The notes: generated by a model from the sequence alone, not told the origin. 64,000 nt of DNA from Turneriella sp. (GCA_965279515.1 CBDIID010000003.1:4576001-4640000); one strand, 5' to 3'; numbered from the stretch's first letter, positions 10,960 to 32,260 are shown. Made by a program: numbers and translations.

Positions 10960-10971
10960 CAAGGGTAACCG

Positions 10972-12488: not shown

Positions 12489-13005
12489 TTTTTCTCTGGA
12501 ATCCCGAAATCGAGACACTAAAATCGTAGATACCCGGTTTTTTAAGTACCGGGCGGTAGTTAAAACTTTCGACTTTGTAGAGCGTCTGTGTGCTCTGCTC
12601 AATCTGGCGGATAAAATCGAGAACCTGATTCGCCGGACTTTCCTTGATGGAAACCTTCACTTCGCGCTTCAGGTATTTTTCCTGCACAATGGTGTCGGTG
12701 GGCGTGAGGCTGCCGACTTTTTCCCTGAGGCCGATGTTCTTCAGCATCGTCTCGATGCTTGAGAGCATATTGTCGAGTTGCTGCGAGTCGCCCGTACGCA
12801 TCGCCTGCAGCAGCTGGTACTGGCGGCCGAGGTTCTCGACCTGCAGAGTATCGCGTTCTGCTGAATCTGAACGTTCCCTGATGTCGGCCATATAACGCGC
12901 GAACGAGCGGCCCATAAAGAACAGGCCCATAATCACGGCAAACGAGGCAAGAATCAGCACGTAGGTGCGCTCGCGCGGATTCAGTGAGTCCCAGAACTTT
13001 TTCAT
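12475..13005 (-). CDS. gspM: Type II secretion protein M-like
   Basis: WDSLNPRER + TM + coiled coil + ferredoxin-like domain; position in operon. Confidence 0.7.
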   Translation of the reverse strand: MKKFWDSLNPRERTYVLILASFAVIMGLFFMGRSFARYMADIRERSDSAERDTLQVENLGRQYQLLQAMRTGDSQQLDNMLSSIETMLKNIGLREKVGSLTPTDTIVQEKYLKREVKVSIKESPANQVLDFIRQIEQSTQTLYKVESFNYRPVLKKPGIYDFSVSISGFQRKNDGK

Positions 13006-14660: not shown

Positions 14661-14685
14661 GGCTAATTACCAGTCTGGAAAGGTT

Positions 14686-15780
14686 TCATTCAGCGTAAAA
14701 CACGAGGCGCTTTGCGTTCGGGTCCAGGACTCCCATGACCTGCGCTACTTGCGAATCAATCGACGCGTCGGCAACAATCTTATAGATTTGATTCTGCTCG
14801 GTAATGCGGATAGACAGCTCCTTAAAAAGCGTCAGGTTCCCCGTTGTGGGAATCTGCAGCTCGGGGAAGGTGGCGAGGTCGGCAATACTCTTGAACCGGC
14901 CCCCCCGCTTGACGCGTTCGGTGACGATTTTGCGGGCCGCGACCGGGGTCATAAACTCCGAAAGCGCGAGAATCACATGGTAGGGCGCTGAGTTGATATT
15001 GATGAGGTCGGTCGATGTGTCGGCGTTATAGACCAGGTAGGTTGTGATATTATTGGCGAGAACGTAGTCCGCCGGTGAAATCGCGGCTTTTTCCGCGTCG
15101 CTGAGGCTGCTGGTCGATGTATTCTTAATGCGGTCGAGTGAACGCAGGTCGTCATAGAGCAGGCGCGCATCGAACCCGGGAATAAAAAGCAGTTCTTCGA
15201 GCGCCTGCATGCGGCCGTTCTTGATGCGCCGCGGGGGTATCAGGCGTTCGTACTCGTCGCGCTCGGCCCCGCGCGCCATCGGCGTATTGTTCTCGTCGAC
15301 GTAATCGATCACCGCATGCCAGAGATCGATGGGAATACCCAGTGCGATCGACAGGCGCTGAAAATATTCGAGCTGTTTTTCATCGGTCTGGTCTTCGAAC
15401 ATACGCACGAGGCGGTTTACGTTAAATTTACCGCTCTCTTCGCTGATCGACAGCGTCACCGTGCCGCCACCCAGCGGAATCGTCGGCGCCATCGCGAAGA
15501 TACCGAAATCATAGAGCGAATCGAGTGGTATACGCGTGAGTAACAGAATACCAGTTTCGAGTCCGCTCTGTGCGAGCTGCAGCGATCTCTCCCGGTTGCC
15601 GGCGGTTGAAACGCCGCGGTATTCGTTCAGCGCGAAGCGTACATAGACGAGCGCGACCGATGCAGTGAGCGTCAGAATCAGTGTCGCCGTAATCAGAATG
15701 ATCGCCCCACGGCGGCGCAAAAAATATTTCCTGCGCACCGGTGTTTTTGTAGGGGGGATATCCTGCTTTGCAAAAATCAT
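14686..15780 (-). CDS. gspK: Type II secretion minor pseudopilin K
   Basis: RRGAIILI prepilin-like N-terminus, EESGKFNVN, IDYVD, KNGR..LEELLFIPG, ININSAP. Confidence 0.85.
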   Translation of the reverse strand: MIFAKQDIPPTKTPVRRKYFLRRRGAIILITATLILTLTASVALVYVRFALNEYRGVSTAGNRERSLQLAQSGLETGILLLTRIPLDSLYDFGIFAMAPTIPLGGGTVTLSISEESGKFNVNRLVRMFEDQTDEKQLEYFQRLSIALGIPIDLWHAVIDYVDENNTPMARGAERDEYERLIPPRRIKNGRMQALEELLFIPGFDARLLYDDLRSLDRIKNTSTSSLSDAEKAAISPADYVLANNITTYLVYNADTSTDLININSAPYHVILALSEFMTPVAARKIVTERVKRGGRFKSIADLATFPELQIPTTGNLTLFKELSIRITEQNQIYKIVADASIDSQVAQVMGVLDPNAKRLVFYAE

Positions 15781-15782
15781 TT

Positions 15783-16649
15783 TTACTCGGCGAGATATTT
15801 TTCGAGGTTGGAATTCCGCGCGGGGCGCGGTATGCAGCCGAAGGCCGCATGGAAAAGTGCAAGGCGTATCTCTTCGTAGATAAAAGGCGCCATCGCCTTG
15901 CGCATCGAGCGCGAGAGTTCAACCGTAATGATCGGAATTTTATTCTCGCGCGCCCATGTGCCGAGCGAGCCCGGCGTCGGGTAGCCGACGTCTGAGCCCA
16001 GCGGGTAATCCGACAAGAGCGCAAAGGGTTTGGCGATCTCTTCGTGCTCGGGGTAGTGCAGCACGACGCGAAACGGCTGGTGCAGGTTGTACATCAGCGC
16101 CGGCGGGTATTTCTCCATGAGTTTCATGAAGGCCTGTGTCTCACGCGCATTGGGCGCACCCTCGGCGCCGTCGGAGCTCGGGAAGTCGCGGTTGAGATCG
16201 ACCTTTTCAGCGGCAAAGCGGTCGTTGCGCTTATAACCGTCGGGGTTGTAGAGCGGTATCACAATGATGCGCCGTCCGTTGCGGAAATCATCACTGACGA
16301 GTTTCATTTCACGCACGAAAAAATCGAGCGCACGGCTGGTATTGCGTTCGTCGCCATGCTGCGCGCCGAGTATATAGACGTTTTCCGCGCTATCGCGTTT
16401 CTCTTGCGCAGGGTCGACGATCCAGGCGATGAGCGGCTTTTTCTTTTTCGAATGCCCGTAGGTAACCTTGCGCGGGCGAATTTTCACCGTAGGGTCGGCG
16501 TCGCTGACCTTGCAGGTGAGTTTGGCGACAAAGCGTGCGTGATCACCCGAAGAGAAATAGGGTTTGGCAGCGCCTGCCGAACCTGCTAGGCTCAGGAATA
16601 CAAGGGGGATTGCTATCGGGGCGAAGGCGCCGGATACTTTGGGAAACAC
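15783..16649 (-). CDS. M14 zinc carboxypeptidase, murein peptide amidase A (MpaA)-like, with signal peptide
   Basis: QHGDE, NPDG, DLNRDFP, NLHQP, GYPTPGSLGTW, ITVEL. Confidence 0.8.
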   Translation of the reverse strand: MFPKVSGAFAPIAIPLVFLSLAGSAGAAKPYFSSGDHARFVAKLTCKVSDADPTVKIRPRKVTYGHSKKKKPLIAWIVDPAQEKRDSAENVYILGAQHGDERNTSRALDFFVREMKLVSDDFRNGRRIIVIPLYNPDGYKRNDRFAAEKVDLNRDFPSSDGAEGAPNARETQAFMKLMEKYPPALMYNLHQPFRVVLHYPEHEEIAKPFALLSDYPLGSDVGYPTPGSLGTWARENKIPIITVELSRSMRKAMAPFIYEEIRLALFHAAFGCIPRPARNSNLEKYLAE

Positions 16650-17007
16650 TCTACCTGACGCTCCAAGACTCAGGCCCGGCCGTCAAGAAATAACACATGA
16701 CCAAGCCCCCATGATATGGGCAGAGGAATTTGGCGCGCTATTCGCCAAGAGGTTTTCGGTTAGGGCCGGTCAGCCGTGTGGCCAACGTCCGAACAGCCTC
16801 ACGGCGAGGCGGGCAACCGCTTCCAAGTCGCGGCAAAGGCTCAACTAGAAACAAAGCACCATTTTGCACAATGTCGGTTTGCCTTTCGTGCCATTAGGCA
16901 ATAAGCCGGTTGGTGAGTAGACCGCGGGTTGTCTCGAACCAGGCCGGGCATGTAAACCCGATTGGGCGAAGTGGTGACGCGAAGCCGGTGATGCGGGGAG
17001 GGCGGCT

Positions 17008-17424
17008 TCAAAACCAGTCATTTTCGCCACCCTTCATTCTGAACTGCCAACGCTCAGCAGTGATTAACTTTGGCTGATTACGGTGGATTTCAACGGTATG
17101 GGTTTTCATAAATTCGCGCCAAATGTTTTTATCATACGGCACTGGTAACGTTGATTGGTCAAATACGAATACCGTTTTGAATTGCTTGTTTGAATCAATC
17201 GCGATGATCCCTATCTCCTTTCTGTTTTGCCAATCTGGGAAGCCAGCCTCTTCAAAATCTTCAGCTGGTATGCCATCCGTATTGACGCAGGTTAAGCTGC
17301 CGGTCTCCTTGGGGGCATTGCATAGAGTTTAGAAACCGTTCCTATTTCGAGCCAAGTTATAGAGTTCCACGAGTTCTTGAGAAAATTGGTTCAGAAAAAA
17401 TTCGAACATTTTGAATTTGCTCAT
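17008..17424 (-). pseudogene. Nonsense-interrupted hypothetical gene (possible orphan immunity remnant)
   Basis: ATG 17424 MSKFKMFEFF...NGF, TAA at 17331-17329, then the same frame stays open for 106 codons (TLCNAPKETG...GGENDWF) to TGA 17010-17008. Confidence 0.45.
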
Positions 17425-17658
17425 TGTGCAACCAACCCGGTTCAGCCTTTTGTAAATACTCTCGGAATCTATTTCTCTCTTCAGCGTCCTTCACTGGCCC
17501 AACGGCTTTAAATGAATGAGTGACGTTCATAAATCCGGCCGTAATATCTAGCAGGGTGTTGAAAAACGCATAGAATCGGGTATCCGTTCAAACCATAAAT
17601 ACGATTGGACGGGCACGTATTTTGCGCCTTGCCACCTTCGCTTCTGGGCGCAACGGGC

Positions 17659-18750
17659 TCATAGCTTGCCAGCCAAAATAACCAGATTGGCTGCCGCCAT
17701 CGTGAATATGAAATGAAAGCCAACCTTAGCTTTGCCGCAGTAGCGTGTTTTACGGATACCACCGATGGTTTTGCCCCAGCCAAATAATTCTTCAATCCGT
17801 TTGCGAACGCGTTGGCTGATTGCATAGCCGGTACTTCGCGCCGTTCGGCGATCAAGGCCTGGTGTTTTTCGTGTTTCAATCATGGCGATGTGCGGTTTTA
17901 TCTTCAATGACCTGAGCGATGCTACCATGTCTTTCGTATGGTAGCCTTTGTCTGCACCCAATGTTCGCGGCTTGATTTTGCGCTTGCGGAGATTCTTTAA
18001 TAGAGCAAGCAAGCCACGGCGTTCTGCTTTGCCATCAGCAGCCTCCAGGTTTGCCGCAACACAAAGACCGGTACGATTTTCCATGACGACATTACCGCAG
18101 TAAGACAGCTTTGCTTCTTTGCCGGGGCCCTTGCGTGCAAGCATGGATTCGGGATCAGTAGTACTGGCATGTGTTTCATTGCTGCGTTTTTCATCGTGAA
18201 AATTCACGATCGGATTGCGACTGGTGTCTATTGGCTTTTCGCGTTTTACGTCTGCATCTTTTTGTTTCGGCTTAAAGCTTTTAAGCGATGCCCATGCTTC
18301 GATCAATGTGCCGTCAGCGGTGAAGTGTTCATCAGAGACCAGATTCTTGCTTTGCGCAAAACGAACGACCTGCGCCAGAAAGCTATTTGCGATTTCCTGA
18401 TTGAGGAGGCGTTCGCGGTTTTTGGCAAAAGTACTGTGATTCGGAACAGGATCATTCGGCATCAGATCAAGAAACCAGCGGAAGAGAAAATTGTAGCTGA
18501 GTTGTTCACAAAGCTGGCGCTCCGAACGAATCGAATAAAAAGCGATCAGAAGCGATGCCTTCAGCAAAAACTCCGGCGGTATCGAGGGTCTGCCAGCATC
18601 GGCGTACATCTTATCAAGTGCTCCATCCAGTTTGCCGAGCACGTCATCGGCCATAGTCTTGATTTTACGCAATGGATGCGACGGCGGAATCAGATCTTCC
18701 GCAGAGAAATTGTAGAGAAAATTCATCTGAGCTTTTTGGTCACCGCGCAT
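17659..18750 (-). CDS. IS5-family DDE transposase
   Basis: HPLRKI, GRPSIPPE, FTADGTLIEAWAS, GADKGY, RKRIEELFGWGK. Confidence 0.92.
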   Translation of the reverse strand: MRGDQKAQMNFLYNFSAEDLIPPSHPLRKIKTMADDVLGKLDGALDKMYADAGRPSIPPEFLLKASLLIAFYSIRSERQLCEQLSYNFLFRWFLDLMPNDPVPNHSTFAKNRERLLNQEIANSFLAQVVRFAQSKNLVSDEHFTADGTLIEAWASLKSFKPKQKDADVKREKPIDTSRNPIVNFHDEKRSNETHASTTDPESMLARKGPGKEAKLSYCGNVVMENRTGLCVAANLEAADGKAERRGLLALLKNLRKRKIKPRTLGADKGYHTKDMVASLRSLKIKPHIAMIETRKTPGLDRRTARSTGYAISQRVRKRIEELFGWGKTIGGIRKTRYCGKAKVGFHFIFTMAAANLVILAGKL

Positions 18751-18756
18751 TGGCTC

Positions 18757-18785
18757 AATATAATCAAAATTAAGGACTTCTTCAA
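18757..18785 (-). promoter_or_regulatory. sigma70-like promoter of the transposase, likely leaderless
   Basis: TTGAAG-17nt-TATATT, then 6 nt to the ATG at 18750; the -35 lies inside the IR. Confidence 0.5.
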
Positions 18786-19237
18786 CACCCTGCTAGAGAG
18801 TAACTTCCGGCAAAATAGACTCGATTTGGCTCAAGACTGAATGTAACGCACTCGTCACTACAAAGAAAGGTACTTCTACCTAAACTAGTCGAGTAGATGC
18901 GGTATCGCCCTCTGGGCAACGCTACGGTAGTAAACGGAGAGGAGTTTCGGCTCGCAATTTCCACATTTCCTGAAGCGTTAGAACGATAAGTTTTCTTGCT
19001 ATCGATATCGATGATGGCAACATTTTCAGACATTCTGCCGATTTTACCCACACCTTCCATTTCTATCACCAAACCGAGGAGAGATTTATCGCTCTGGTAG
19101 ATCGGTACTGACTTACAATAGAGTAATACCAGTGAGGGCGTAAAAATCCATAGTCTCAATAGATGTTGAAATTTTAGCTTTGCGCACATAACTGCTTCAT
19201 CCTTTTATCATTTATTCCAACGTGAGGAGTTCCTGAG

Positions 19238-22200
19238 TCAACTCCGATTCTTATTTTTTCCATTTCTCGGAGCAGGTTGAGATTCGCAGCTGATTGCCAT
19301 GCACTTAAAGACTCTGCCGAGTTCGATCGAGGCTTCTTTCATAGCCTTACCTGTCCTTAGGAATTCCCTTCCTGAAGCCTGAAACTCTCTCTTGGTTTTC
19401 TGAAAATCCCGCTTCGTTTTTTGCCAATCATCCGCCATCTGCTGATATGGTGCGGCAATCTTGTTACCCATTTCAGCAAATTGGCCAGGGATTTCGCTTA
19501 TTTGACGCATGTCATCCAGAAAATCATCAATTTTCTTTTGCCGGAGGCGAGACTCCTCTGCTCTTTCTCTTTTCCAACGCTGATAACTATCATATGTATC
19601 CTTGATATCAGCACCAATATCATATGAATACCCTACGTTTACGTCAAAGCCGCTTTTTCCATATCTTGGGCCAATTGATACGCTTTGAAAATCTTTCATA
19701 TCAAATAAATCAAGCCCTACACCCCAGTCGTTTAGATGGCCTTCACGATCCCAGGAAAGTGAGCCGCTTACCTTACCTATGCCATAGGCATAATAAAGCT
19801 CCGCGTTTGTCCCTTCGTAACCAGTTTTAAAGCCAAATGAAGCCGTAACACTCAATCCAACAGTACCGATTGGTGCAGTAAAGGAAACGCCAACACTGGC
19901 GTAGCTAACACCTTGATTTTGCCCAAAGTTATAACCTAGACCAAACGTAGCCGAGGCGTTAAAACCAGCCCCAAGGCCGTTAATGTCAATCCCGAGACGA
20001 GGGCCAGCTTGAACATTCCCCCCAACTGAAAAACCATTGCCCCATTTTATATCGATGCCAATCCCTCCAAAACCAAGATTTATTCCAAAGGAAATTCCTT
20101 TGCTGCTGATGCTCAAAAAGAAATGGCCTGTCGGATCCGTATAAATGATAGGATTACCACGAACATACATATGTCTATTGAAAGCAAAAGCCCCCTGTTC
20201 TTCGTCAAACTCTGTGTCCGGCGTTGTGAATACTCCAAGTTGCGGGTCGTAATATCTTGCGTTGTAGTAATAGAAGCCTGTTTCCGGATCATATTCCTGT
20301 CCGGTGTACTTTACCGCCGTAATCGCAACCGACGCATCCTCTAAATGATGCTCGATCTCTCCGGTTGCCGGGTTGTACTTGCCCGAATTCGCCAGATCAA
20401 TCTCACCGTATTCGGTGTACGTAATCCGGAAAACCTCATTCCCCGCACTGTCCGTCACCAGCGCCCCCGACCCGAGGTGATTGTGGCTGTAGTAAACCGT
20501 TCCCGTAGGTAGGCCTGTGTAAAGCGCGGAGATTATGCTGTTTCTGCTGTCCGCCAAATCACTGGGCACCGAACCAGGGGAATTGCCCGAACCGCAATTC
20601 ACTGAAATAAACGATGCAAGCATTGTGATAGCCGCAATACGTGTCCATAATGGAAATTCGTGTTCCTTGCGTTGCGTAGAGATCAGATAAAGTATGAGCA
20701 GCAAGGCCAGAACGGCAAACGTACCGATCCGCAGACCTTTACCGGTATTCTCGTGCTGATAGATTCCATAGAAAGTGTAATAGACCTTGTTCGTAAGGCC
20801 GCCGATGCTGCTCGAAGAATAACCATCCGCCAGCGCGAACATCGCGCCGGCACCGGCAACAGGCATTGTCGTTTGGACATTTCCGGTAATCGAAGCGAGC
20901 TTCTTCTCATCTGTGCCGTAAATGTATTTCGTCGCTTGATAGGCATTAAATGTTCCGGAAGAACTTTGTGAAGCGCCAATATATTTCTCGCGCAGTTCGA
21001 TACCGTCGCCCAGATACCAGGTCTTAATTAACACACCATTGCGTAAGTGCGTCTTCAAAAAACGCTGCCCGGTATGGTCATAGTAGAATTTTGTATCGCC
21101 CACGACAGTCGCTGTGTTCTGCGGGTCCACCTCCGTCGCGCTCGTCATCATGCTATTGCTGTCGTAGCCAAAAGTAAATGGGCCCTTGGTCAGAAGTTGT
21201 CCGCTTGTTGACCAGGTGAAAACCTGATTTGCCTGCCACTGGGCAGTGTCCTGATTGTAAACCTCGTCGCTCATGGGGTAAGTCTTCCCATCGGCGTATG
21301 CCATACGCCTGTTGGCCTTGAGTTCCAGATTTCCCTTGCTTTCCGGCTGGCCGTCCTTATCAAACTTATACGTGCGCGTAACGCCTGAATCCAGCACGGC
21401 GGATTTCAAACGATTCAGGGCATCGTAATCGAATTGGACGGAAAGGCCAGAAATAACATTGTCCTCTATGCTCTGGATATTGTACGAAGTATCATACTGG
21501 TATGTTAAGTCGAATAACGGAGCGGTATTGGAGATTTTGAAAGTATCGAGTAGCCCTGTGTTCGCAACATAAGTGTATTGATGCACAATGCCGTTACCGT
21601 AAGTAATCTTGCCGATGTGTGGGGCTATGTCGTAGCTAAAGTCGCTGTATTCGGCGTACGTGGTGCCGTTGTGTTTGATCTTAGACACAAAAGATTGGTA
21701 GGCATCGACGTAGCTAATCTGCGAATGCGTTCCATCGGGATACATCATATCCGTCACGCGGCCTAACTCGTCTTTGGTTTTGCCGAAGGTCTGCAGGCAT
21801 GGCATCGCATTGCTATCGGCGCAGAGCGTTTCCGTCGCGTGTGAAAGGCGCCGCACAGTCTGCGTAATTTCGCCGCGCTCGTCGTATGTATAACGTTCCT
21901 GAATAGTAAATCCGTCTTTTATATGCGTTAACGTTGTTAGACGTCCCTCGCCATGAGCTACATCTGTCTCATCATATAGATAGGTTATGCTTTCCAGAAT
22001 ATTTGCAGGCGCCGCCACGGCAACCTTCGTCGTTTTTGAAACTCTGCCGAAACCGCCGTTATATTCGAAAGCAGTGACATAGCCTGCGCGAATCTCTGTC
22101 TTCAATTTACCAAAATTGGGTTGTCCTGCGGCCAGATAATATTCATAGTCTGTTCTGCCCGCCACCGGGTCATCGATATAGCGTTGTAAGTTGGATCTCC

Positions 22201-25200
22201 CTACGTAACCGATACTCGTCGGCACGGTGCCTGTCGTCGTTATGCTTTGTGGGGAAATAACTCTCGTAAGCCTTGCCAACGCGTCGTAAACGTAATTCAC
22301 CGTCGTGGTTTGCAGCGCCGCGTGGTTTGCCTCATACACGATAGCTGTCTTGCCTTCGATGTTATTGTAAGTGCGCTTTTGTTTGCCATCGGGGCTGGTA
22401 ACAAGTGTGCCTGCGACGGTTCCACCGGGTAGACTGGTGGTCAGATAGTCGGTATGTGTGGTTCTGTTGTTGAACGTCACAGAATCGCTGACACGACCCA
22501 TTGAATCATAGCTTTTGGCATTCCATTGTGTTGGATTTCCACTGAGCGCATCAAAAGGCTGCGAAATTTTCAGCTCTCTGCCGCGTGAATCATAGCGGCG
22601 CTCGATAGCCATGAGTTTTTCGACACCCGCGACAAACTCGGGATACTCTTCACGATATACGCGTCCCAACGCGTCGGCAATCTTTCTGGAGCAATGCTCT
22701 TGCGCAAAACCGGTACCGTACTTAACGCAGTCCTTTTTCCATGCAGGCTGCTCGTTATATGCAGAGCGATAGAATGATTTCTTGGAGATTACTGAGCTGC
22801 CGTTTTTAATCTCTACGGCTACAACGAAACCCGCATTGTCGAAGGTCGTCGATTCTTCAACGCCCGTTTCGCCGTCTAATTTGTAGTTTGGTTTGCTGAA
22901 ACGGTAATCCACGCGTTGTGAAGTTATGCGGATTCTTGCCCCATCGATCTTTTTCACAGTATAAGGAAATTGCAAATAATCCGGGTCATATTCGATTTCG
23001 GTGCGTATGCCCATACCATCGACAGAATCTTTTAAAAGGCCTGAATCATAGTAGGTGTATGTTTCGGGAACCCAGAGCCCGGTTCCATCGCCGGTTGAAG
23101 CATACGTTTCTTTACGCGTAACCTGATGTTTCGCACCCACAAGTCCGAAACCCTGCTGATCAAAATAAGATTTTGCCGATGCAAGAAAATTGACATCCCC
23201 TTCTGTGCATTCCGTCGCGCTGAGGCAGTTTTTCTCCGCGTAGGGTAGCCCAATGACGTATGTGGTCGCCGTATCGTTGAAAAACTGCGTGTACTTATAT
23301 GCGGTCTTGAAATTCCCGTTAGCCTCTAAGCCGCTTTTCGTTGCCAGCGGATTTCCATATGCATCTTGGCTTAAGACTCCGTTATACTTACGGCTTATGA
23401 GTATGCCATTTTCATAAGCTTTCTCTTGTGTCTCGCCGACCGTCCTAAATTGCTTCGGCAGCGCCGGATTCGGATTGTTCGACGGATCGTGCGTACAGCC
23501 GTTGGTATCGCAGAGCCAGAGTTGTGGCTGTCCGCCGATTTGCTCAGAAAGCAAAGTACCGTCGGAAAGATAGCTGCGGGTAACGCTCGCTTGTGTCTGA
23601 AACGGCTTATCTTGGCGATATGTCGTGATCGAATAATTACCGCTATTCACATCCGTAGTTTTCATTTTCTCAAAGCCTAAGGATCCACGTTCATGTACAT
23701 ACCCTGTACTCACTCTACCATTGAAGTACTGGTATTGCATCGCAAAAGTATCATTTCCAGGTACGTTGTCGAGATCCCGATCGCTGGTCGTAATGACTTG
23801 GGTAACAAGATAGCTGGGAGAAGAATTAGGAATCCCAGCTGCACCGGAGAGTGATGGTTCAGAACTTGGGCCGCTGCAAGGTGACGGACAGACAGGGCCA
23901 GAAAGCTGCACAGCAGATTCATAATTAATGGCTATTTGTACGCCAGAATTGCGTTGAATCGATACTAATAAGTTCGGCTGTTTCCCGGTGGATAATCCAA
24001 CATGCATGGTGCCACTGTGATTACCGGTTTGACACCAAAAATCCGATTTACCATCGCCATTGAGATCACCGGAACCACAATATTTTTTCATCTCTGGTCT
24101 GGTTGGGCCACTCAAAAATTGGCTGACCCAGCTTGTACCTGTCGATATTGCAACGTGCCAAACGCCTGTGGTATCTCCTGTTTGGCACCAGAAATCTGTC
24201 TTTCCATCTCCGTTTACATCGCCGGTTAGGCAGCTTTCTTTCATCGATCCAGGTCCCGGCCCGTTCCAGTAAGAAGAATTCCAACCCGTGCCTGTAGATA
24301 ATGCAACATGCCAAGTACCCGACTGATCGGCTGTTTGACACCAAAAATCCGTTCTTCCGTCACCGTTCAAATCACCAGTCAGGCATGTGTCAGGTGCACC
24401 TGGTGCGGGACCGTTCCAAAATGGAGCATTCCAGCCGTTTCCAGTAGATAGTGCAACATGCCATGTAGGTGATTGATTGCCTGTTTGACACCAATAATCT
24501 GTTTTCCCATCACCATTCAGTTCGCCGACCAAGCAATTTATGGCGGCATCAGCCGTTGTTGGCCCATTCCAAAATGCACTATTCCACCCGTTACCATTAG
24601 ACAATGCAACGTGGGACGAACCTGTATGATCCCCCGTCTGACACCAAAAGTCCGTTTTGCCATCACCATTGAGATCCCCTATTTTGCAGCTGTTGCTGGG
24701 CGAGCTAGGGCCTGGGCCAGACCAAAAGGGCATAGCCCAACTGCCAGTGGACAATGCGACGTGCCATGTGCTGGATTGGTCGCCTGTCTGGCACCAGAAA
24801 TCGGTCTTCGCATCACCATTGAGATCACCGCTAAAACAATAGGCGGTCATGTTTGGCCGAGTTGGTCCGCTCATGAATGGAATACTCCAGCCATTACCCG
24901 TGGAAAGACCTGCGTGCCAGGAACCCGTGTTATCACCCGTCATGCACCAGAAATCGGTTTTTCCATCACCATTAACTTCACCAATAAGGCATTCACTGCT
25001 GAAAGAACCAGGACCCGGCGCGCCGCCCCAAAAAGGCATCGCCCAACTGGCATTTTCAGAGCTCCAGCCAAATGTTAATCTCGAAATTTCGGTCGCAGCA
25101 GAATCTAACTCTTGCCAGGTTTTCAGTCGACTGGTAAAAAGTTCTGTTTCATACTGTAACGTATATGCCCGTACCGGCTCACTGCATGTAAAAAGGACCA

Positions 25201-26020
25201 AACACGAATCTTTATAAGTAACATTAATACCCGCTAACCGCCAGGCAGTCTGTACATAGGAACTTGCCGCATAGCTGACATCCTTATCAGGCCGGCCCGT
25301 CTTATCATAATCAAATGTTACGGCGTAGAACCGCGAGGCCCAGCCACCCAGAGTGTAAGTTATCTTTTTCGGATAAAACTGTCCTGCATTTTGAAAGTAT
25401 TCGACTTCATAATAGTTACCGTGCAGGTCTGTTACGCGCGACAAAGCCCAGACGCGCACAGAGCCTGAATTGATGGGTGTACCACCCACATCAATTGCGA
25501 TCACCCTTGACGTTCCCGCATCACCGTAAAGGGAGACGACGCCGCTGCGATCAGTGACTCGCCAGGTGCACGCAGAGTCACCGCAGCGATTTCCGCTGTT
25601 GAGAACATTACCATCCCAACCAAGAGGTTCGTATTTTGACCACGCTTCGTTCTCTGCGTGGAAAACCGTTCCAACAGGCGCCGATGCTGATGCGCTGACA
25701 TCAATCAGCCGACCTTCGGGCCCCCCATAAGTATCGCCGCCGCCATAGTTTATCCCGTTGCCATAATTTATACGCGTAATCGTTGGCAATCCTTGTAAAC
25801 TCCAGCCTACACCAACAACGCCATTTCCACCATTCGAATTATAAGATAGGGCCAGCTTTGGTTGTACGCCGTTGCGTCCTGCCGGAATTTCGACGGGCAA
25901 ACTTTCTGAATAGCTGCCGTCAGGATTAACGCCCGCATAGATCGGTAAGGCCAGACATAGAGGAAAAATCAATTGTCCATAGCGTACGAACGAATAAAGT
26001 AATTTTCTTGTTTTTGCCAT
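19238..26020 (-). CDS. RHS/YD-repeat protein: SpvB/TcB-like N-terminus, FG-GAP repeats, RHS core, variable C-terminal domain
   Basis: PAGRNGVQPKLALSYNS..GVGWSL (SpvB-like), GDLNGDGKTD repeats, YD repeats, YTGQEYDPETGFYYYNARYYDP, NPIIYTDPTG; GAGGT SD before ATG 26020. Confidence 0.9.
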   Translation of the reverse strand: MAKTRKLLYSFVRYGQLIFPLCLALPIYAGVNPDGSYSESLPVEIPAGRNGVQPKLALSYNSNGGNGVVGVGWSLQGLPTITRINYGNGINYGGGDTYGGPEGRLIDVSASASAPVGTVFHAENEAWSKYEPLGWDGNVLNSGNRCGDSACTWRVTDRSGVVSLYGDAGTSRVIAIDVGGTPINSGSVRVWALSRVTDLHGNYYEVEYFQNAGQFYPKKITYTLGGWASRFYAVTFDYDKTGRPDKDVSYAASSYVQTAWRLAGINVTYKDSCLVLFTCSEPVRAYTLQYETELFTSRLKTWQELDSAATEISRLTFGWSSENASWAMPFWGGAPGPGSFSSECLIGEVNGDGKTDFWCMTGDNTGSWHAGLSTGNGWSIPFMSGPTRPNMTAYCFSGDLNGDAKTDFWCQTGDQSSTWHVALSTGSWAMPFWSGPGPSSPSNSCKIGDLNGDGKTDFWCQTGDHTGSSHVALSNGNGWNSAFWNGPTTADAAINCLVGELNGDGKTDYWCQTGNQSPTWHVALSTGNGWNAPFWNGPAPGAPDTCLTGDLNGDGRTDFWCQTADQSGTWHVALSTGTGWNSSYWNGPGPGSMKESCLTGDVNGDGKTDFWCQTGDTTGVWHVAISTGTSWVSQFLSGPTRPEMKKYCGSGDLNGDGKSDFWCQTGNHSGTMHVGLSTGKQPNLLVSIQRNSGVQIAINYESAVQLSGPVCPSPCSGPSSEPSLSGAAGIPNSSPSYLVTQVITTSDRDLDNVPGNDTFAMQYQYFNGRVSTGYVHERGSLGFEKMKTTDVNSGNYSITTYRQDKPFQTQASVTRSYLSDGTLLSEQIGGQPQLWLCDTNGCTHDPSNNPNPALPKQFRTVGETQEKAYENGILISRKYNGVLSQDAYGNPLATKSGLEANGNFKTAYKYTQFFNDTATTYVIGLPYAEKNCLSATECTEGDVNFLASAKSYFDQQGFGLVGAKHQVTRKETYASTGDGTGLWVPETYTYYDSGLLKDSVDGMGIRTEIEYDPDYLQFPYTVKKIDGARIRITSQRVDYRFSKPNYKLDGETGVEESTTFDNAGFVVAVEIKNGSSVISKKSFYRSAYNEQPAWKKDCVKYGTGFAQEHCSRKIADALGRVYREEYPEFVAGVEKLMAIERRYDSRGRELKISQPFDALSGNPTQWNAKSYDSMGRVSDSVTFNNRTTHTDYLTTSLPGGTVAGTLVTSPDGKQKRTYNNIEGKTAIVYEANHAALQTTTVNYVYDALARLTRVISPQSITTTGTVPTSIGYVGRSNLQRYIDDPVAGRTDYEYYLAAGQPNFGKLKTEIRAGYVTAFEYNGGFGRVSKTTKVAVAAPANILESITYLYDETDVAHGEGRLTTLTHIKDGFTIQERYTYDERGEITQTVRRLSHATETLCADSNAMPCLQTFGKTKDELGRVTDMMYPDGTHSQISYVDAYQSFVSKIKHNGTTYAEYSDFSYDIAPHIGKITYGNGIVHQYTYVANTGLLDTFKISNTAPLFDLTYQYDTSYNIQSIEDNVISGLSVQFDYDALNRLKSAVLDSGVTRTYKFDKDGQPESKGNLELKANRRMAYADGKTYPMSDEVYNQDTAQWQANQVFTWSTSGQLLTKGPFTFGYDSNSMMTSATEVDPQNTATVVGDTKFYYDHTGQRFLKTHLRNGVLIKTWYLGDGIELREKYIGASQSSSGTFNAYQATKYIYGTDEKKLASITGNVQTTMPVAGAGAMFALADGYSSSSIGGLTNKVYYTFYGIYQHENTGKGLRIGTFAVLALLLILYLISTQRKEHEFPLWTRIAAITMLASFISVNCGSGNSPGSVPSDLADSRNSIISALYTGLPTGTVYYSHNHLGSGALVTDSAGNEVFRITYTEYGEIDLANSGKYNPATGEIEHHLEDASVAITAVKYTGQEYDPETGFYYYNARYYDPQLGVFTTPDTEFDEEQGAFAFNRHMYVRGNPIIYTDPTGHFFLSISSKGISFGINLGFGGIGIDIKWGNGFSVGGNVQAGPRLGIDINGLGAGFNASATFGLGYNFGQNQGVSYASVGVSFTAPIGTVGLSVTASFGFKTGYEGTNAELYYAYGIGKVSGSLSWDREGHLNDWGVGLDLFDMKDFQSVSIGPRYGKSGFDVNVGYSYDIGADIKDTYDSYQRWKRERAEESRLRQKKIDDFLDDMRQISEIPGQFAEMGNKIAAPYQQMADDWQKTKRDFQKTKREFQASGREFLRTGKAMKEASIELGRVFKCMAISCESQPAPRNGKNKNRS
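23980..25050 (-). repeat. Seven ~50-aa Cys-paired FG-GAP-like tandem repeats within the RHS gene
   Basis: Consensus C-x2-G-[DE]-[LV]-N-G-D-G-K-T-D-[FY]-W-C-Q-T-G...W-H-V-A-L-S-T-G...W..P-F-W.GP, seven copies. Confidence 0.85.
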
Positions 26021-26031
26021 AAAATTTAACC

Positions 26032-29000
26032 TCAATAATTTTGCAGTTCCAGTATCTCCGTGGTATTTAGAGCGCGAGAATATATGCGAACGTCATCCAG
26101 ACTACCGGCCCAACGCAGGGCAAAGTCGGATCGGGCACCAATGGTGAACGTGCCATTGGAAACGGTTGCGAAATTGATAGCCGACGGACCACCGCCGGCA
26201 GGAATCACACCATTCAGAAAAATTGTGGCTTTGCCTTCTGCGTCTAATACACTACAGAAATGCGACCACTTATTTGCGGGCAGGGAAGCGGAGGATGTCA
26301 GATTGTTGGCAAAGTTACCGAAAGTAAGGCCTGCCAAGCCGCCAGAAAAGAGAAAGCTGTTTTCGCCCACGTTCGTTGTGCCGTAGCTGAGTGCGAATGC
26401 GTTAAGACCGACATTGACAGGATTTACGCGCACGCACATGGTTCGCGCGGAATTCCCCATCGGCAGGCCCGTATCGTTAGAAAAAAAGTATTGATTCGTT
26501 CCGTTCAGGGTAAATGCGTTACTTGCGACGCCGTCGGAACCATTGCCCAAAGCAGGGTTCCCCATAGCTGTCAGGCCCGGCCCACCATTGTCTTCGGTTA
26601 ACCTGCCTGATTCGAATGAGTACTGTCTCAGCAAGCTAGTTCCTAATTGAGAGGAAAGCACGGTAATTTCATGTTGTTCCAGTGCACGCCCATAAACTCG
26701 GACGTCATCAATGACTCCAGTAAAGGCTGTCGTCCCTGAAGTATCTCCTTGCCCCACGAGAATACCACCCGCACCGGCAAGAACTGTATTCCAATTTTTT
26801 GCGGCCGAAGCTACTTTTGAACCGTTAACGTAAAGCGATGCTTTTTCCCCGTCATATGTGCCACAAAGGTGTGTCCAGGTATTGGGTACTGCAGGCAGGC
26901 CGCCGCTTAAGTCATCTGTCCATGCACCAAAGAAAAATTTGGTCGCGGTGCCATCGTTATAAAGCCCAAGCGTCTGTGCTTCTCCCACGGATGGGTTACC
27001 GTATCTTATGGCAGTGCCATATGCCCCGGTAGCCGGAAGAGCCGTCGGCATCACCCAGACGCAAGTGGTTCGAGAAGTTGCTCCGGCGGGCAATCCTGTG
27101 TCTGAGGCCGTAATCCATTGATTCGCTGCAGTGAAATTGTATGCCCCGACGTTTCCAAAGCGATCGGTCGTCTGTGAGGGGCCGCCAACCAGAGTACCGT
27201 TATGCCCATTGTTACTATAATCTGTGGCCGTGAGCGATGCAGCGTCGCTGAATGAATAATAAACCAGCAGACTTGCCGGCACTTGAACCGCCATCTGTCT
27301 AATGACTGTGGGGGTGAGGGCACCAGCATAGATGCGCACATCATCGACACGGCCGTTAAAAGCAGATTGTGTGGCATTGCCAGAAGCTTTGCCGATAACA
27401 ACTCCCGCTCCAAGAGTAGTGGAGGCCACGGACGATCCGGTTCCGTCCTGAATGCCATTCAGAAAAATGCGCAAATTGTTCCCGTCATAGACATGGCACA
27501 AATGCGTCCAGGTGTTGAGTTTAAGGGATGTGCCACCCAGAAAATCTGAGCCACCGGCGAAACCATAGCCGCCAGTGCTGGTTCTGTTACCCAGATAAGC
27601 GCCGCCAGAGGCCCCATACATCATCGCAACGCAGTTTGTACCGCACTGCGACGCGGTATTTACCCATGCACATATAGTACGGGGGCCTTGGCCGAGTGGC
27701 AAACCGTTGTCGAGGCCGCTCAGGTAGGTGTTACCGGAACCGTCGAACTTATAGGCGCCGAAAGCATCGCCATCGACCCCGTTTACCTTTTTGGGATCTC
27801 CATATGCAGAAAGATGGAAGGGTGTAAACGCCCGGTCCTGAATATTCGTCGAATCGCTGTTAAAAGTGAACTGGCGTAGCAGGCCCGAAACGGCAAAGCC
27901 CGTATTTGAAGTATACGTGGAGGCCAATGTATTTCCGGCAATATCACGAATGCCGGTAGTCACGCGCACTTTGTAAATCCCAGGCTCGAATCCGTCTGCA
28001 GCTGACAGCAGAAATGTCTGCGAAGAAATCGCCATAGGCTGCGAGCGCATCTTGACGCAGGTGTTTGGCGCAAAATCGTCCGCGGCCGACGAAATCTGCA
28101 GAGTTCCAGAGCAGCTGGAATCGGAGGTATTCGTCGTGATCGTGGATAAATCCAAAGCAAGCGGATCTGCAATCGTTATGGCTACGGGGGCCGCGCCCGG
28201 TATTGCATTCGAAAGATCCCCGGGCGTGATGGACGCTATAGTTGGCTGGGTATCACTGCGGTAAATAGACAGGTTCGAGTCTGCGACCTGAACACCGTTG
28301 GAGAGGCAGATATGAATTGCATTGTTTCCGCTCGCCAAAGCGGGCGGGCCGTTTACGGGAATTTGTGTTGCTATCCAGCTTCCCTGAACATACTGTTGCA
28401 CGGAACCGATTGTCAAACCGGAGCCGCATCCTGGTCCCGATGTACATCCCCCACCGCCAAGGCAGATCTGGTAGTTGCCGGATTGATTTGCCTGCCAGGT
28501 TATCGTGGTCGAATTGTTTGCGGAATTTCCGCTCACATAAGTCGTCGAGGCCGCAGGCGACGCAAAAGATATTACGGGCAGTGATGAATTGATCTGATAA
28601 GAAAGCACAAGCGGCGTGCTTTGATTGCCAGCGGTATCCATGGCGACAGCAATCAAGGTTGAGTAAGTGGAATCGCCAGAGTAGGGGGTGATCCAAGAGC
28701 CTGTGAGCTCTGTTCCGGTCAGTACGCTGCCATCATTGTTAAAGATGGGGGCACTCGGTGTCCCCGGGGATGAAGCACCGGTTGCTACTTTATACGCGAT
28801 GCGCACGCAATTATCAGAGCAGCTGATGGATACACTCTGCTGCTGGGCGTAGGCGCCGTTTCCGATACTGGCTTGTAATACCGGAGCGCTACTATCATTA
28901 ACGACGATGGCCACAGCTTCGCCTGACTTATTAAACCCTGAATTGTTCTGCACACAGATGCGAACAAAGTAAGTTCCTGAACTATCAAAATTTCCGGAAA

Positions 29001-29667
29001 GAGGAATCGTCGACGTTATCGCGCTGTTACCGGGCAGATTTGAACCAGTTATATTTGTTCCTCCGGATATCGCCCCAGCATCGGCGCAGCTTGACCCGCC
29101 CAGCTTGAGGGTGTAAGAGTTATTGTTTTGCGGATCAATCCGGTAGTCATGGTTCCAGTTAATGACGACCGAAGTCTTCGCCAGACCGCCTCCAGAGCTC
29201 ACGAAATGCGTCGAGGTTGAATCGAGAATGCTCACACCGATATCCAGATTACCGATGAGCCGCAGTGAAGTGCCCTTGGAAAATGGCATCGATGTAAAGT
29301 TTGTCAGGCCGGGAAAAGACAGATCTGCGTTGCCGTTGGCTAACTTGCCCGAAAGTTTCAATGTGACGGTATAAGTGCCTGTCTGTTCGATCGAGGCAAT
29401 TTTGAGGCTGCCCATATTGGCCAGCTCATAGTTATCCGGGTCTAACCAGCCTTTAATTCTTTGGGAAAAGGTGACCTGTATGCCTTCTAACTTACTGACG
29501 GTATTGGATCCCCGGTTTGGTATGGGAACGTAGCTTACCACATAGGGGGCAACTGTCTGGGGCTTGAAGCAGGATGCCCGGGGATTCAGGCAATTTTCAT
29601 TGGGATCGAAGAATTTACAGCTTCCCGTTAAAGCCAACGCACCAAGAATAGCCCATCGGAGAGACAT
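26032..29667 (-). CDS. Large lipoprotein with Ig-like domains and three LamG/ConA-like jellyroll domains
   Basis: Lipobox LALTGSC; Ig-like VTTGIRDIAGNTL; three repeats of LP.G..RT.C.WV...W.H.C..YDG...DDVR[IV]Y..AL. Confidence 0.85.
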   Translation of the reverse strand: MSLRWAILGALALTGSCKFFDPNENCLNPRASCFKPQTVAPYVVSYVPIPNRGSNTVSKLEGIQVTFSQRIKGWLDPDNYELANMGSLKIASIEQTGTYTVTLKLSGKLANGNADLSFPGLTNFTSMPFSKGTSLRLIGNLDIGVSILDSTSTHFVSSGGGLAKTSVVINWNHDYRIDPQNNNSYTLKLGGSSCADAGAISGGTNITGSNLPGNSAITSTIPLSGNFDSSGTYFVRICVQNNSGFNKSGEAVAIVVNDSSAPVLQASIGNGAYAQQQSVSISCSDNCVRIAYKVATGASSPGTPSAPIFNNDGSVLTGTELTGSWITPYSGDSTYSTLIAVAMDTAGNQSTPLVLSYQINSSLPVISFASPAASTTYVSGNSANNSTTITWQANQSGNYQICLGGGGCTSGPGCGSGLTIGSVQQYVQGSWIATQIPVNGPPALASGNNAIHICLSNGVQVADSNLSIYRSDTQPTIASITPGDLSNAIPGAAPVAITIADPLALDLSTITTNTSDSSCSGTLQISSAADDFAPNTCVKMRSQPMAISSQTFLLSAADGFEPGIYKVRVTTGIRDIAGNTLASTYTSNTGFAVSGLLRQFTFNSDSTNIQDRAFTPFHLSAYGDPKKVNGVDGDAFGAYKFDGSGNTYLSGLDNGLPLGQGPRTICAWVNTASQCGTNCVAMMYGASGGAYLGNRTSTGGYGFAGGSDFLGGTSLKLNTWTHLCHVYDGNNLRIFLNGIQDGTGSSVASTTLGAGVVIGKASGNATQSAFNGRVDDVRIYAGALTPTVIRQMAVQVPASLLVYYSFSDAASLTATDYSNNGHNGTLVGGPSQTTDRFGNVGAYNFTAANQWITASDTGLPAGATSRTTCVWVMPTALPATGAYGTAIRYGNPSVGEAQTLGLYNDGTATKFFFGAWTDDLSGGLPAVPNTWTHLCGTYDGEKASLYVNGSKVASAAKNWNTVLAGAGGILVGQGDTSGTTAFTGVIDDVRVYGRALEQHEITVLSSQLGTSLLRQYSFESGRLTEDNGGPGLTAMGNPALGNGSDGVASNAFTLNGTNQYFFSNDTGLPMGNSARTMCVRVNPVNVGLNAFALSYGTTNVGENSFLFSGGLAGLTFGNFANNLTSSASLPANKWSHFCSVLDAEGKATIFLNGVIPAGGGPSAINFATVSNGTFTIGARSDFALRWAGSLDDVRIYSRALNTTEILELQNY

Positions 29668-29934
29668 CTATACATGATCCCCTTCACGCATATCTATTCC
29701 TTGAAACCCCGAAAAATCGGAACTGTATTCAACTTTTTTAGAAATTGTTTTGAACGGAAGGCTTTATGGGCGCACAGAGGAACAGCCGGTTGTCTGATAA
29801 GCATTTAAGCATGTTCCTCCTCCACGCCAAAGATAGGTAAGACCAGACACCATTGGTCGGCGCGACATGCTGTCAAACACTTAGTGCGCCGCAAGATCGA
29901 CGACTGGGTCAATTTTCAATGCCTTATGTCAGTT

Positions 29935-31008
29935 TCAGAAGGAAAGCCCGAGCCCAAAAGAAAAGTGTCCGGATGTGTGATTCTGGACGTCATTTGCGGC
30001 TGACCGAGCCGAGCCTCCTAAGATCAGGAATGTGCCCTCTGAGCGCCCCGTCGCCAACCTCTTTCCCAGCTGCGCATGCCTGGTGTCGAAAATCCAGGCA
30101 TCCATAATTTGCCATACGTAGACGGCAAGCGTGACGCCAATGCTCACCAGCGTAATCTGTTGCCAGGTTTGCGCCTGCGAAGCGTAGCGATCAAACTGCG
30201 CCTGTGCGTCCGCCGGATCGATCAGCTCTGTACCACCTTGCGGAGTAATGACATGGTCGGGGTTATAGTTGCGGTATCGGCTATATGCATTTTGCCACAT
30301 AACCAAAGAAAAAAGAGAAAATACAAAACCGGTACCGACAGCCCCGCCGTAAATGTATCCCCAGGTTTCCCGTCGTTTATATGCTTGCCCCCATCCCGGT
30401 AATAAGGCTGACCGCCACATTGCGCCGAGATCAGAAGGGATGAAAAGTTCTTTCATCTGGTAAGCTAATCGGTCTGCGAAGGCGTGAATATCCCGGGAGG
30501 TGTGTTCTGAAATTGGTATGGTGACATCAACCTCTCCCATGAGCTCCCGACTCAATACCGAAAGCACTCTGCCTGATAGGTGAATCTTTCCTTCCAATAC
30601 TTCAAATTTACCATAGACTACGCCGTCCGCTGGCAATGCTTGTCCCATCATCTGGACTTTTTCTCTGTCAGCCAAGTGCGACGCGGTTAAACCGCTTCTG
30701 CGAACATAATCTTGCCAGGTATTCCGGTCAATTTGGGCATAGGCATATTTATTGATCGTTGCCTTATAAACGCTCTCGCCAATCTCTTTCTCGAGATATT
30801 TATATTCTGTATTCCGGGTTTCGTTGTAAAAATCCAGAAATAAGATTTGTCTCAGGGCTATCTTTCTTGAAATCTTTGTAGACTCAAATGATGTTTCCCG
30901 ATCTAAGTTATCCGTTTTTAAGCCCTGCGCAAACATATCCATGGGCATGAAAAAAAACATGATTAATGCGAAATATACAATCCGCGGAGATCTTGATCGC
31001 CAAAACAT
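29935..31008 (-). CDS. CsgG/TolB-N-like domain + DUF5683-type membrane protein
   Basis: Signal peptide; ILFLDFYN...ADGVVYGKF..LSGRV; AMWRSALLPGWGQAY followed by two TMs and IMDAW; ends FSFGLGLSF. Confidence 0.65.
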   Translation of the reverse strand: MFWRSRSPRIVYFALIMFFFMPMDMFAQGLKTDNLDRETSFESTKISRKIALRQILFLDFYNETRNTEYKYLEKEIGESVYKATINKYAYAQIDRNTWQDYVRRSGLTASHLADREKVQMMGQALPADGVVYGKFEVLEGKIHLSGRVLSVLSRELMGEVDVTIPISEHTSRDIHAFADRLAYQMKELFIPSDLGAMWRSALLPGWGQAYKRRETWGYIYGGAVGTGFVFSLFSLVMWQNAYSRYRNYNPDHVITPQGGTELIDPADAQAQFDRYASQAQTWQQITLVSIGVTLAVYVWQIMDAWIFDTRHAQLGKRLATGRSEGTFLILGGSARSAANDVQNHTSGHFSFGLGLSF

Positions 31009-31102
31009 ATGAATCTGTCGCCTTAATAAGCGAGTCAGAGCGTAAATCTAAAGTTCTGGCCTGGCTTTCCGGCGAAGGTGCCATCCTGGCAGTCGAAAAG
31101 CT

Positions 31103-32260
31103 TTAGGAGATCGTGTCCCTCAAATCCTTCATTATATTCTTCTGCATCGCCTCGTTGGTGCCCCCGCCGATCGAGAGCAGAATCGCGTCGCGCAGCAGTT
31201 TTTCCACCGGGTATTCGCGGGTATAGCCGTAACCGCCGAAAACCTGAATCGCACAGCGTGCAACGTATTCGGCCATCTGTGTTGCCGAGAGTTTCGCTGC
31301 CGCGGCGGACAGCGATTCGCGCGAATTCGGGTTCACCCGAAGCGCGGTTTCATAGACGAGGGCGCGGCTCGCGCGGTAGCGCGAGTAGGATTCCGCAATG
31401 AGCTGCTGTATCTGGCCGAAATCGGCCAGCTTTTTGCCGAAGGCGCTGCGGTCGACGCTCGCATAACGGACCATTTCGTCGAGCGCGCGGCGGGCAATCC
31501 CAATCGACATCGCGGCGAGGGTCAGGCGCTCAATCTCGAGGTTGCGCATCATGTGCGTGAGCGCGCCGTGCTCAGCGCCGATGAGATTCTCGGCCGGAAC
31601 TTCGACGTCTTCGAAAATCAACTGGCAGGTAGGTGACTGGCGTATGCCCATCTTGATCTCTTTTTTGCCGACACTGAAACCCTTCCAGGTCGATTCGACA
31701 AGAAAGCTCGAAAGCGCCTGGCGGTTACCCTTTTCGGTGCGGGCATAGACAAGAAAATAACGGCCGACGTTACCGTTGGTGATCCACTGCTTGACGCCGT
31801 TCAGAATATACTTATCACTCTTTTTCTCAGCTGTAGTTGTCATACCCAGCACGTCGGTACCGGCGCCGGGTTCAGACATCGCCATCCCGGCTATTGCCGT
31901 ACCGTCAAGCACAGGGGGGATGTACTTATCGCGCAGGGGTTTTTGCGCCGCATGGTAGAGATTGTTCACAAACAACACTTCGTGGGCGAGGTAGCTCAGC
32001 GTAAAAGCCGCGTCAGAATAGCTGAGCTCTTCATGCACAATTACCGACGCCGTCGCGTCGAGTCCATGGCCACCCGCCTCGGCGGGTATCGTGATGCCGA
32101 AGAGGTTATATTCGCTACCCATACGGCGCAGCAAAGCTTCATTGAGCGTCTCTTTTTCGTCGAATTCTTTGACTTGGGGTTCGATCACGCCTTTGGCGAG
32201 ATCGTGCACAAGCTCACGCAGGGCTTTATGATCATCGGTGGGGTTGAATAGGTCAAACAT
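31103..32260 (-). CDS. Acyl-CoA dehydrogenase (isovaleryl-CoA dehydrogenase-like)
   Basis: AMSEPGAGTD, LNGVKQWITN, QVFGGYGY, IGGGTNE. Confidence 0.9.
   Translation of the reverse strand: MFDLFNPTDDHKALRELVHDLAKGVIEPQVKEFDEKETLNEALLRRMGSEYNLFGITIPAEAGGHGLDATASVIVHEELSYSDAAFTLSYLAHEVLFVNNLYHAAQKPLRDKYIPPVLDGTAIAGMAMSEPGAGTDVLGMTTTAEKKSDKYILNGVKQWITNGNVGRYFLVYARTEKGNRQALSSFLVESTWKGFSVGKKEIKMGIRQSPTCQLIFEDVEVPAENLIGAEHGALTHMMRNLEIERLTLAAMSIGIARRALDEMVRYASVDRSAFGKKLADFGQIQQLIAESYSRYRASRALVYETALRVNPNSRESLSAAAAKLSATQMAEYVARCAIQVFGGYGYTREYPVEKLLRDAILLSIGGGTNEAMQKNIMKDLRDTIS

Follow-up and report, generated by a model that had tools for sequence, protein, structure and literature searches.

A 64-kb stretch of the genome of Turneriella sp. 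(GCA_965279515.1 CBDIID010000003.1:4576001-4640000; the window, whose full length is the frame for all coordinates given here) contains a 14.7-kb island with genes for a DUF5683-type membrane protein, a laminin G (LamG) lipoprotein, a SpvB/FG-GAP/RHS polymorphic toxin and a small putative immunity lipoprotein (Table 1). We propose, with moderate confidence, that the RHS toxin, which has a Sec signal, is likely to be aimed at target cells, or held for them, by the LamG lipoprotein, and that the DUF5683 protein serves the lipoprotein and not the toxin. A first-pass annotation of the window had put the three proteins together as a surface-tethered toxin or adhesin system, and this interpretation is supported in part. 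The source genome (G000) is 99.99% complete.

Linkage of the LamG and RHS genes

The genes for the DUF5683 protein, the LamG lipoprotein, the RHS protein and the small lipoprotein are co-directional, as first annotated. Between the stop codon of the LamG gene (TGA, 26034-26032) and the ATG of the RHS gene at 26020 there are 11 nt (ggttaaatttt), and a ribosome-binding site (GAGG) ahead of this ATG overlaps the LamG stop codon. The LamG protein matches Laminin_G_3 (E 1.9e-63) and Big_5 in Pfam, and its signal peptide ends in a lipobox (...ALALTGSC). Both this protein and the immunity-like protein are predicted bacterial lipoproteins, as they have lipobox signal peptides and the genome encodes Lgt (two copies) and LspA (one copy).

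There are ten orthologues of the island LamG protein in a large protein collection, with 62-84% identity, and seven of these have an RHS homologue listed on a contig whose size in bp is exactly the same. These seven pairs (Table 2) are known from protein records alone, not from contig DNA. Two NCBI pairs have consecutive accessions (RHS MBX3722405 and LamG MBX3722406; RHS MBX3724133 and LamG MBX3724134), and consecutive accessions in pipeline-annotated metagenome-assembled genomes denote neighbouring genes. Across the seven pairs the identities to the window proteins run in opposite directions for LamG and RHS. Consistent with this, maximum-likelihood trees of the two proteins conflict: the window protein groups with that of the 284744-bp contig in the LamG tree (100/100) and with that of the 21083-bp contig in the RHS tree (100/100), where the 284744-bp contig sits in the other deep clade. 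This incongruence indicates that RHS alleles have been exchanged while the adjacency to LamG was kept.

Table 2. LamG-RHS pairs on contigs of equal size, with identity to the window proteins
Contig (bp)	LamG identity	RHS identity
284744	81%	36%
23506	80%	38%
17822	73%	38%
35896	71%	43%
39824	68%	49%
71939	67%	65%
21083	62%	80%

The association also extends to other phyla. In two Verrucomicrobia loci (L121 and L123) a LamG gene with a signal peptide ends 18 nt and 16 nt, respectively, before the RHS gene, and in two Elusimicrobia RHS proteins (L103:4022-11095 and L079:3256-10236) Laminin_G_3 lies within the shell region itself, at about aa 1545-1685 (E 9.5e-19 and 1.9e-21); the former protein also has a PKD domain. 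Although we initially doubted the link between the LamG and RHS genes, since RHS genes of the species-representative genomes had no LamG gene upstream, we accept it because of the orthologues that share contigs with RHS homologues, the consecutive accessions, the conflict between the trees and the Elusimicrobia fusions. The co-occurrence expected by the first-pass annotation is therefore borne out for LamG and RHS beyond the source genome. DUF5683 is not an RHS-specific partner, and may or may not accompany the LamG-RHS pairs of those loci.

A class-level search of 190 genomes gave no island-type LamG orthologue outside the source genome; LamG matches of 48% identity in G014 and G009 are orthologues of another LamG paralogue, not of the island type. 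With the LamG protein as query, there was no related locus among the genome contigs or the metagenome contigs. A search of the metagenome contigs with the RHS alignment returned two unrelated short contigs only, and missed the contig of P0003, a protein whose C-terminal domain is related to the one in the window (see below).

The RHS protein, its internal hairpin and its cargo

The RHS protein begins with a Sec-like signal that can be read directly from the sequence (...FPLCLALPIYA / GVNPDG), in agreement with the first-pass annotation. In Pfam it matches SpvB (aa 33-211, E 3.8e-17), five copies of FG-GAP_3 (E 8e-20) and RHS_repeat (E 1.6e-4), and its sequence matches in the PDB are SpvB, YenB, Rhs 7q97 and SGS1. 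D1962, P1963, G1965 and H1966 of the RHS core are invariant in two alignments, and we take the DPxG motif to be the autoproteolytic release site. Six Turneriella RHS homologues can be aligned up to the invariant DPxGH and are unalignable after H1966. The C-terminal domains vary, as would be expected of the TcB/TcC-fusion-like polymorphic toxin first proposed. For P0031, P0033 and P0036 the precomputed Pfam annotation includes Peptidase_M23 without giving its position in the protein, and M23-like motifs are visible in the aligned C-terminal stretches of G007b and G010_C57. Different small genes follow different C-terminal domains, most of them encoding proteins with a signal peptide or lipobox, and there are orphan cassettes. 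There are RHS homologues in nine of the 19 other genomes of the family.

By its sequence, the protein is a polymorphic toxin of a class named 'TcdB/TcaC export pathway', which was listed for spirochaetes by Zhang, Aravind et al. (2012; PMC3482391). As described there, members combine a signal peptide, SpvB, an integrin-like propeller and RHS repeats with polymorphic C-terminal toxins, as in the window. That account of the class leaves the delivery route open and names neither a LamG partner nor an internal hairpin or lipobox. Our literature searches found no later answer on how SpvB-propeller-RHS toxins are delivered where TcA and a type VI secretion system (T6SS) are lacking, and nothing on point for Turneriella Rhs, Leptospira RHS repeat or Rhs with a laminin G lipoprotein.

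Comparison with better-known RHS proteins shows both the shared core and the differences. Like the BC subunits of Tc toxins (TcB-TcC; YenB/YenC2, PDB 4igl), the window protein has an SpvB-type N-terminal domain, an FG-GAP-like propeller and an RHS shell whose C-terminal core, of the aspartyl-protease type, is predicted to release the variable cargo inside, and it can be matched to YenB residues 31-110. Unlike them, it is a single fused chain that has a Sec signal and an internal membrane hairpin bearing a lipobox, it is encoded next to a LamG lipoprotein and it comes from an environmental spirochaete; no TcA family was found among the window open reading frames (ORFs). A Pfam scan of the 48 window ORFs found no T6SS, type V, type VII or TcA family, as the first-pass annotation had stated; the TcA domain TcA_TcB_BD (PF18276) was not found in the genome either, but the control for that search also matched nowhere. 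Like the T6SS Rhs effectors (PDB 7q97), the system has an RHS cocoon with the DPxG release motif, a putative immunity gene downstream of it and orphan cassettes. In contrast to these effectors it has no PAAR or VgrG and an N-terminus made up of a Sec signal and SpvB, and neither VgrG (Phage_GPD) nor VipB/TssC was found in the genome. Teneurins and mosquito SGS1 (PDB 8fjp) likewise bring a YD/RHS shell together with a propeller and domains for adhesion within a single surface system, and the core of the window protein matches that of SGS1, but they are eukaryotic and single-chain and have no polymorphic cargo-immunity pair.

About 110-150 aa ahead of the RHS core there is an internal two-helix hairpin, whose second helix ends in a lipobox-like sequence (…LASFISVNC / GSGN) at Cys1809. 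N1808 and C1809 are invariant in two RHS alignments. In spirochaete-type RHS proteins a basic loop (12-55 aa) joins the first hydrophobic helix to a second hydrophobic stretch, which ends in the lipobox-like Cys. Hairpin and Cys are present in 34 of the 57 homologues with a recognizable core (a further 12 rows, in which the core pattern was not found, were set aside), the first helix only in one, and neither in 22. The carriers comprise all Turneriella, Leptospiria, Leptospira, Leptospirales, Spirochaetia and Spirochaetota rows together with four deltaproteobacterial ORFs that show a canonical LGLTAC or FGSSAC; the hairpin-free homologues come from Nitrospirota, Scalindua, Elusimicrobia, SAR324 and others. 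Because the net charge of the loop is non-negative in all 34 carriers (and positive in 31), a cytoplasmic position of the loop fits, and the second helix would then be oriented as a lipoprotein signal peptide. The literature searched gives no account of an internal hairpin with a lipobox in RHS proteins, and we regard it as a new feature of the spirochaete-type members.

The C-terminal cargo contains 21% Gly and shows a dyad alternation of hydrophobic residues over about 170 aa, ahead of its charged helical tail. The cargo is very rare. The C-terminal domain of P0003 has 59% identity to it, and its first 165 aa are 37% identical (E 9e-28) to the C-terminal domain of P0023, the backbone of which is a different RHS. 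An exhaustive HMMER search of 1.84 billion representatives yielded no more than a 154-aa fragment and a single weak match (E 7e-4); P0003 and P0023 were found separately. The composition and pattern of the cargo suggest that it may be an envelope-acting, possibly pore-forming module.

The public protein collection has the RHS gene of the window only as a 1475-aa product (P0002), so the deposited gene call starts far inside the 2260-codon frame.

The DUF5683 protein, the downstream gene and the island edges

The DUF5683 match covers aa 196-306 of the membrane protein (45.1 bits against a cut-off of 26.7, E 1.3e-11; 47.5 bits in the genome search). The AlphaFold2 model has a mean predicted local distance difference test score (pLDDT) of 66, with 80-92 in an alpha/beta N-terminal domain and 55-85 in the helix region, and consists of a signal peptide, the N-terminal domain and helices at 192-202, 206-210 (short), 214-247 and 265-306 (long). 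With the N-terminal domain, Foldseek places the TolB N-domain and LpoB first (E ~2e-5), followed by PelC, GNA1162 and FlgT, whereas CsgG comes only at rank 50 (E 7e-3). The protein does not match CsgG in Pfam, and its N-terminal domain has no Pfam match of any kind at E<=1. The label 'CsgG-like' given by the first-pass annotation therefore stands at the level of the fold only: neither a sequence match nor the best structural match is to CsgG.

Table 1. Features of the island, in coordinates of the window
Feature	Coordinates	Strand	Details
Strain-specific 14.7-kb island	~16436-31115		missing from this site in 4 sister genomes
Conserved ~60-nt sequence at the 3' edge of RHS modules	16925-17007		
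Small downstream ORF	17011-17424	-	one in-frame stop
3' part of the putative immunity gene	17360-17547	-	continues beyond the insertion sequence
IS5-family insertion sequence	17548-18797	-	1250 bp; transposase 17659-18750
5' part of the putative immunity lipoprotein gene	18798-19189	-	cut by the insertion sequence; lipobox ...LVLLYC
Small ORF with lipobox	18782-19189	-	135 aa (135-codon ORF)
SpvB/FG-GAP/RHS polymorphic toxin gene	19238-26020	-	2260 aa from ATG (MAKTRK...)
C-terminal cargo	19241-20122	-	aa 1967-2260; Gly-rich module of ~165 aa, then charged helical tail
RHS-associated core	20123-20314	-	ends ...NPIIYTDPTGH; matches cores of Rhs 7q97 and SGS1
Hairpin within the RHS protein	20594-20731	-	first transmembrane helix aa 1764-1781, basic loop, second ending at Cys1809
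Ig-like + 3xLamG lipoprotein gene	26032-29667	-	1211 aa; Big_5 and 3 Laminin_G_3 stretches
DUF5683-type membrane protein gene	29935-31008	-	357 aa; Pfam PF18935

The source genome has four full-length DUF5683 paralogues, each followed by a lipoprotein gene without RHS. A profile built from seven DUF5683 members has matches (E<=1e-10) in all 19 other genomes of the family and in 29 of the 34 of the order, in some cases over the N-terminal domain alone. Among 24 loci with the DUF5683 core motif, 15 have a lipoprotein with an N-terminal tag within the +/-1.5-kb locus (13 directly downstream and two divergent). The tag has the pattern C-x(3-8)-(L/K)(D/N)x(D/E)xNC(L/T)N-x4-C(F/Y)xxD…P, and across 16 aligned N-termini its C17, N25, C26, N28, C33 and P41 do not vary. 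The LamG lipoprotein of the window carries this tag. Of 69 RHS loci from other genomes, a single one has a DUF5683 gene within 10 kb, and there, as in its G016 counterpart, the gene is convergent to the RHS gene. Across the family, the DUF5683 protein is the usual partner of tag-bearing lipoproteins, mostly without RHS.

PF18935 also has matches in Bacteroides thetaiotaomicron. The papers found in our literature searches to name DUF5683 do not, in the passages concerned, deal with its function. A preprint describes LptT, an outer-membrane protein of an expanded Bacteroidota lipopolysaccharide translocon that exports surface lipoproteins, in which a long periplasmic stretch at the N-terminus precedes two short and two long helices (Liu ... 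Lea, Berks, bioRxiv 10.64898/2026.10.03.756453). In the DUF5683 model the arrangement of the helices (pLDDT 55-85 in this region) fits that description of LptT; the preprint does not name DUF5683. The spirochaete proteins differ from LptT in adding a TolB-N/LpoB-like domain and in being encoded beside their presumed client genes.

Elsewhere in the source genome (G000:C3:2107136-2127223; L139) a DUF5683 paralogue is followed by three tandem genes (2026, 2047 and 2143 codons) for tag-bearing lipoproteins, in which LamG and Ig domains abound, and there are similar arrays in G007, G013, G015 and G016. The TolB-N/LpoB-like domain (profile positions ~47-187) also stands alone in many proteins 350-530 aa long, which occur several to a genome throughout the order and are a large unstudied paralogous family.

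Downstream of the RHS gene, the first-pass annotation reported no integrase, and there is none, but it overlooked an IS5-family insertion sequence (IS) lying within the putative immunity gene, which is interrupted near codon 131 of some 196. The IS transposase matches DUF772 and DDE_Tnp_1 in Pfam. The genome has five copies of this IS, near-identical (at least 99.7%), with the same ends and encoding the same transposase. The 5' piece of the split gene is 43% identical (E 1.5e-37) to aa 18-142, and the 3' piece 36.5% identical (E 8.6e-14) to aa 144-206, of a paralogue at G000:C3:139172-139801. This paralogue (L138:3172-3801) is full-length and stands alone among transposase genes with no RHS remnant near, and looks like an orphan immunity gene. 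Neither the two immunity pieces nor the stop-broken small ORF has a match in Pfam at E<=1, and for the latter we dropped a 'SUKH-like' label for this reason.

In four sister genomes (G007, G016, G013 and G015) the sequences that flank the island, window 11-16.4 kb on one side and the acyl-CoA dehydrogenase gene at 31.1-32.3 kb on the other, are only 240-335 bp apart; G011 is uninformative because its two flanks are on different contigs. This near adjacency shows that ~16436-31115 is an insertion specific to the source genome. In support of this, G+C content at third codon positions is 0.39-0.53 in the island genes, as against 0.69-0.71 in the flanking genes and 0.59-0.67 in native paralogues of the DUF5683 and LamG genes. 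Scans for tRNA genes and Rfam families gave no match in the island.

The conserved ~60-nt element that marks the 3' edge of RHS modules reads …GCATGTAAAC…TTGGGCGAAGTGGTGA.GCGAAGCCGGTGA… and is found again at two RHS module ends in G007 (L029:7285-7375 and L029:19515-19600) and one in G015 (L016:232-315). There is no second copy in the source genome and no conserved fold. The element may be a recombination boundary.

Genes resembling those of a type II secretion system (GspK and GspL-like at 13002-15780, with unassigned neighbours across 10006-15780) directly flank the island and are kept in sister genomes with or without it. They are a candidate exporter of Sec-exported surface proteins, with no link to the RHS protein.

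Proposed mechanism and alternatives

The proposed mode of action can be put as follows. The RHS protein would be exported by Sec, and its hairpin would tether the cocoon to a membrane with the basic loop in the cytoplasm; the lipoprotein pathway may cut and lipidate the protein at Cys1809. The cargo would be freed inside the shell at DPTGH / F, and this Gly-rich, strand-like module would act on the envelope, which fits an exported lipoprotein as the immunity protein. The LamG lipoprotein would bind glycans of the target cell, and the DUF5683 protein, with its LptT-like helix layout, would handle the N-terminal tag of the lipoprotein in export or anchoring. A more specific version, which we consider rather improbable, is that spirochaete-type BC-fusion RHS toxins need neither TcA nor an injection apparatus and are delivered through the lipoprotein pathway: the RHS protein would be cut and lipidated internally to give a two-piece, membrane-held cocoon, which the LamG lipoprotein, exported by the LptT-like DUF5683 protein, would dock on glycans.

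A number of observations weigh against the main proposal. Five of the seven pairs in Table 2 are placed on the same contig by equal contig size only. The RHS homologues in the T. parva-like genome G007, in G016b and in G010 have no LamG or DUF5683 gene upstream, and for some 30-odd RHS homologues in other phyla the upstream neighbours are unrelated housekeeping genes. A LamG paralogue of 47% identity and its orthologues adjoin ribosomal genes without RHS, and in G016a and G018 the DUF5683-lipoprotein pair is convergent to the RHS gene and not in an operon with it. Promoter and terminator scans found nothing above chance. The cargo has no Pfam family at E<=1 and no usable lead from the protein atlas, and the split in the immunity-like gene means that the module may be inactive or that the gene does not confer immunity.

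Several of these points would be explained if two unrelated modules were simply adjacent, a DUF5683-LamG surface cassette and an RHS-immunity cassette that uses the LamG gene as a recombination flank or hot spot, with no cooperation between them. This is a serious possibility, which we nevertheless rate as lower than that of a functional link. It is favoured by the four other sites of the source genome where DUF5683-lipoprotein pairs occur without RHS, as well as by RHS genes without LamG in G007, G016b, G010 and most other phyla; the incongruent trees are what would be expected from the swapping of variable genes beside a conserved flank, and there is the conserved 60-nt element at the other edge of the RHS modules. 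Against it stand the LamG genes 16-18 nt upstream of RHS in Verrucomicrobia and the LamG domains built into the RHS proteins of Elusimicrobia, independent of any Turneriella flank, and the 11-nt spacing with a ribosome-binding site over the stop codon suggests that the two genes in the window are co-expressed. The island could also be a decaying relic whose toxin is out of use, in view of the immunity-like gene split by the IS, the further ORF with its in-frame stop and the five near-identical IS copies, which point to recent IS activity. We think this unlikely, as the frames of the RHS (2260 codons), LamG (1211) and DUF5683 (357) genes are intact, the split protein may still function through its N-terminal two thirds and there is the 43%-identical paralogue elsewhere in the genome. 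Less likely again is that the RHS protein is not antibacterial, but a surface cocoon or adhesin, or a weapon against eukaryotic grazers, with the C-terminal module as its own outer-membrane anchor. The alternation of hydrophobic residues over some 170 aa of the cargo does resemble membrane beta-strands, the cargo belongs to no toxin family and LamG and Ig domains are typical of adhesins. Against this, Peptidase_M23 is listed for sister RHS proteins and M23-like motifs occur in G007b and G010_C57, small exported proteins are encoded downstream, and the orphan cassettes and polymorphism fit interbacterial conflict.

The locus gives two testable handles on how SpvB-propeller-RHS toxins without TcA or T6SS reach their targets. 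One is a lectin-type lipoprotein whose gene has kept its place beside that of the toxin while alleles were exchanged, and which in other bacteria is fused into the toxin. The other is an internal membrane hairpin with a predicted lipidation site, conserved across the spirochaete-type members. Additionally, the pairing of DUF5683 with a tag-bearing lipoprotein outside Bacteroidota bears on how widespread dedicated export of surface lipoproteins is.

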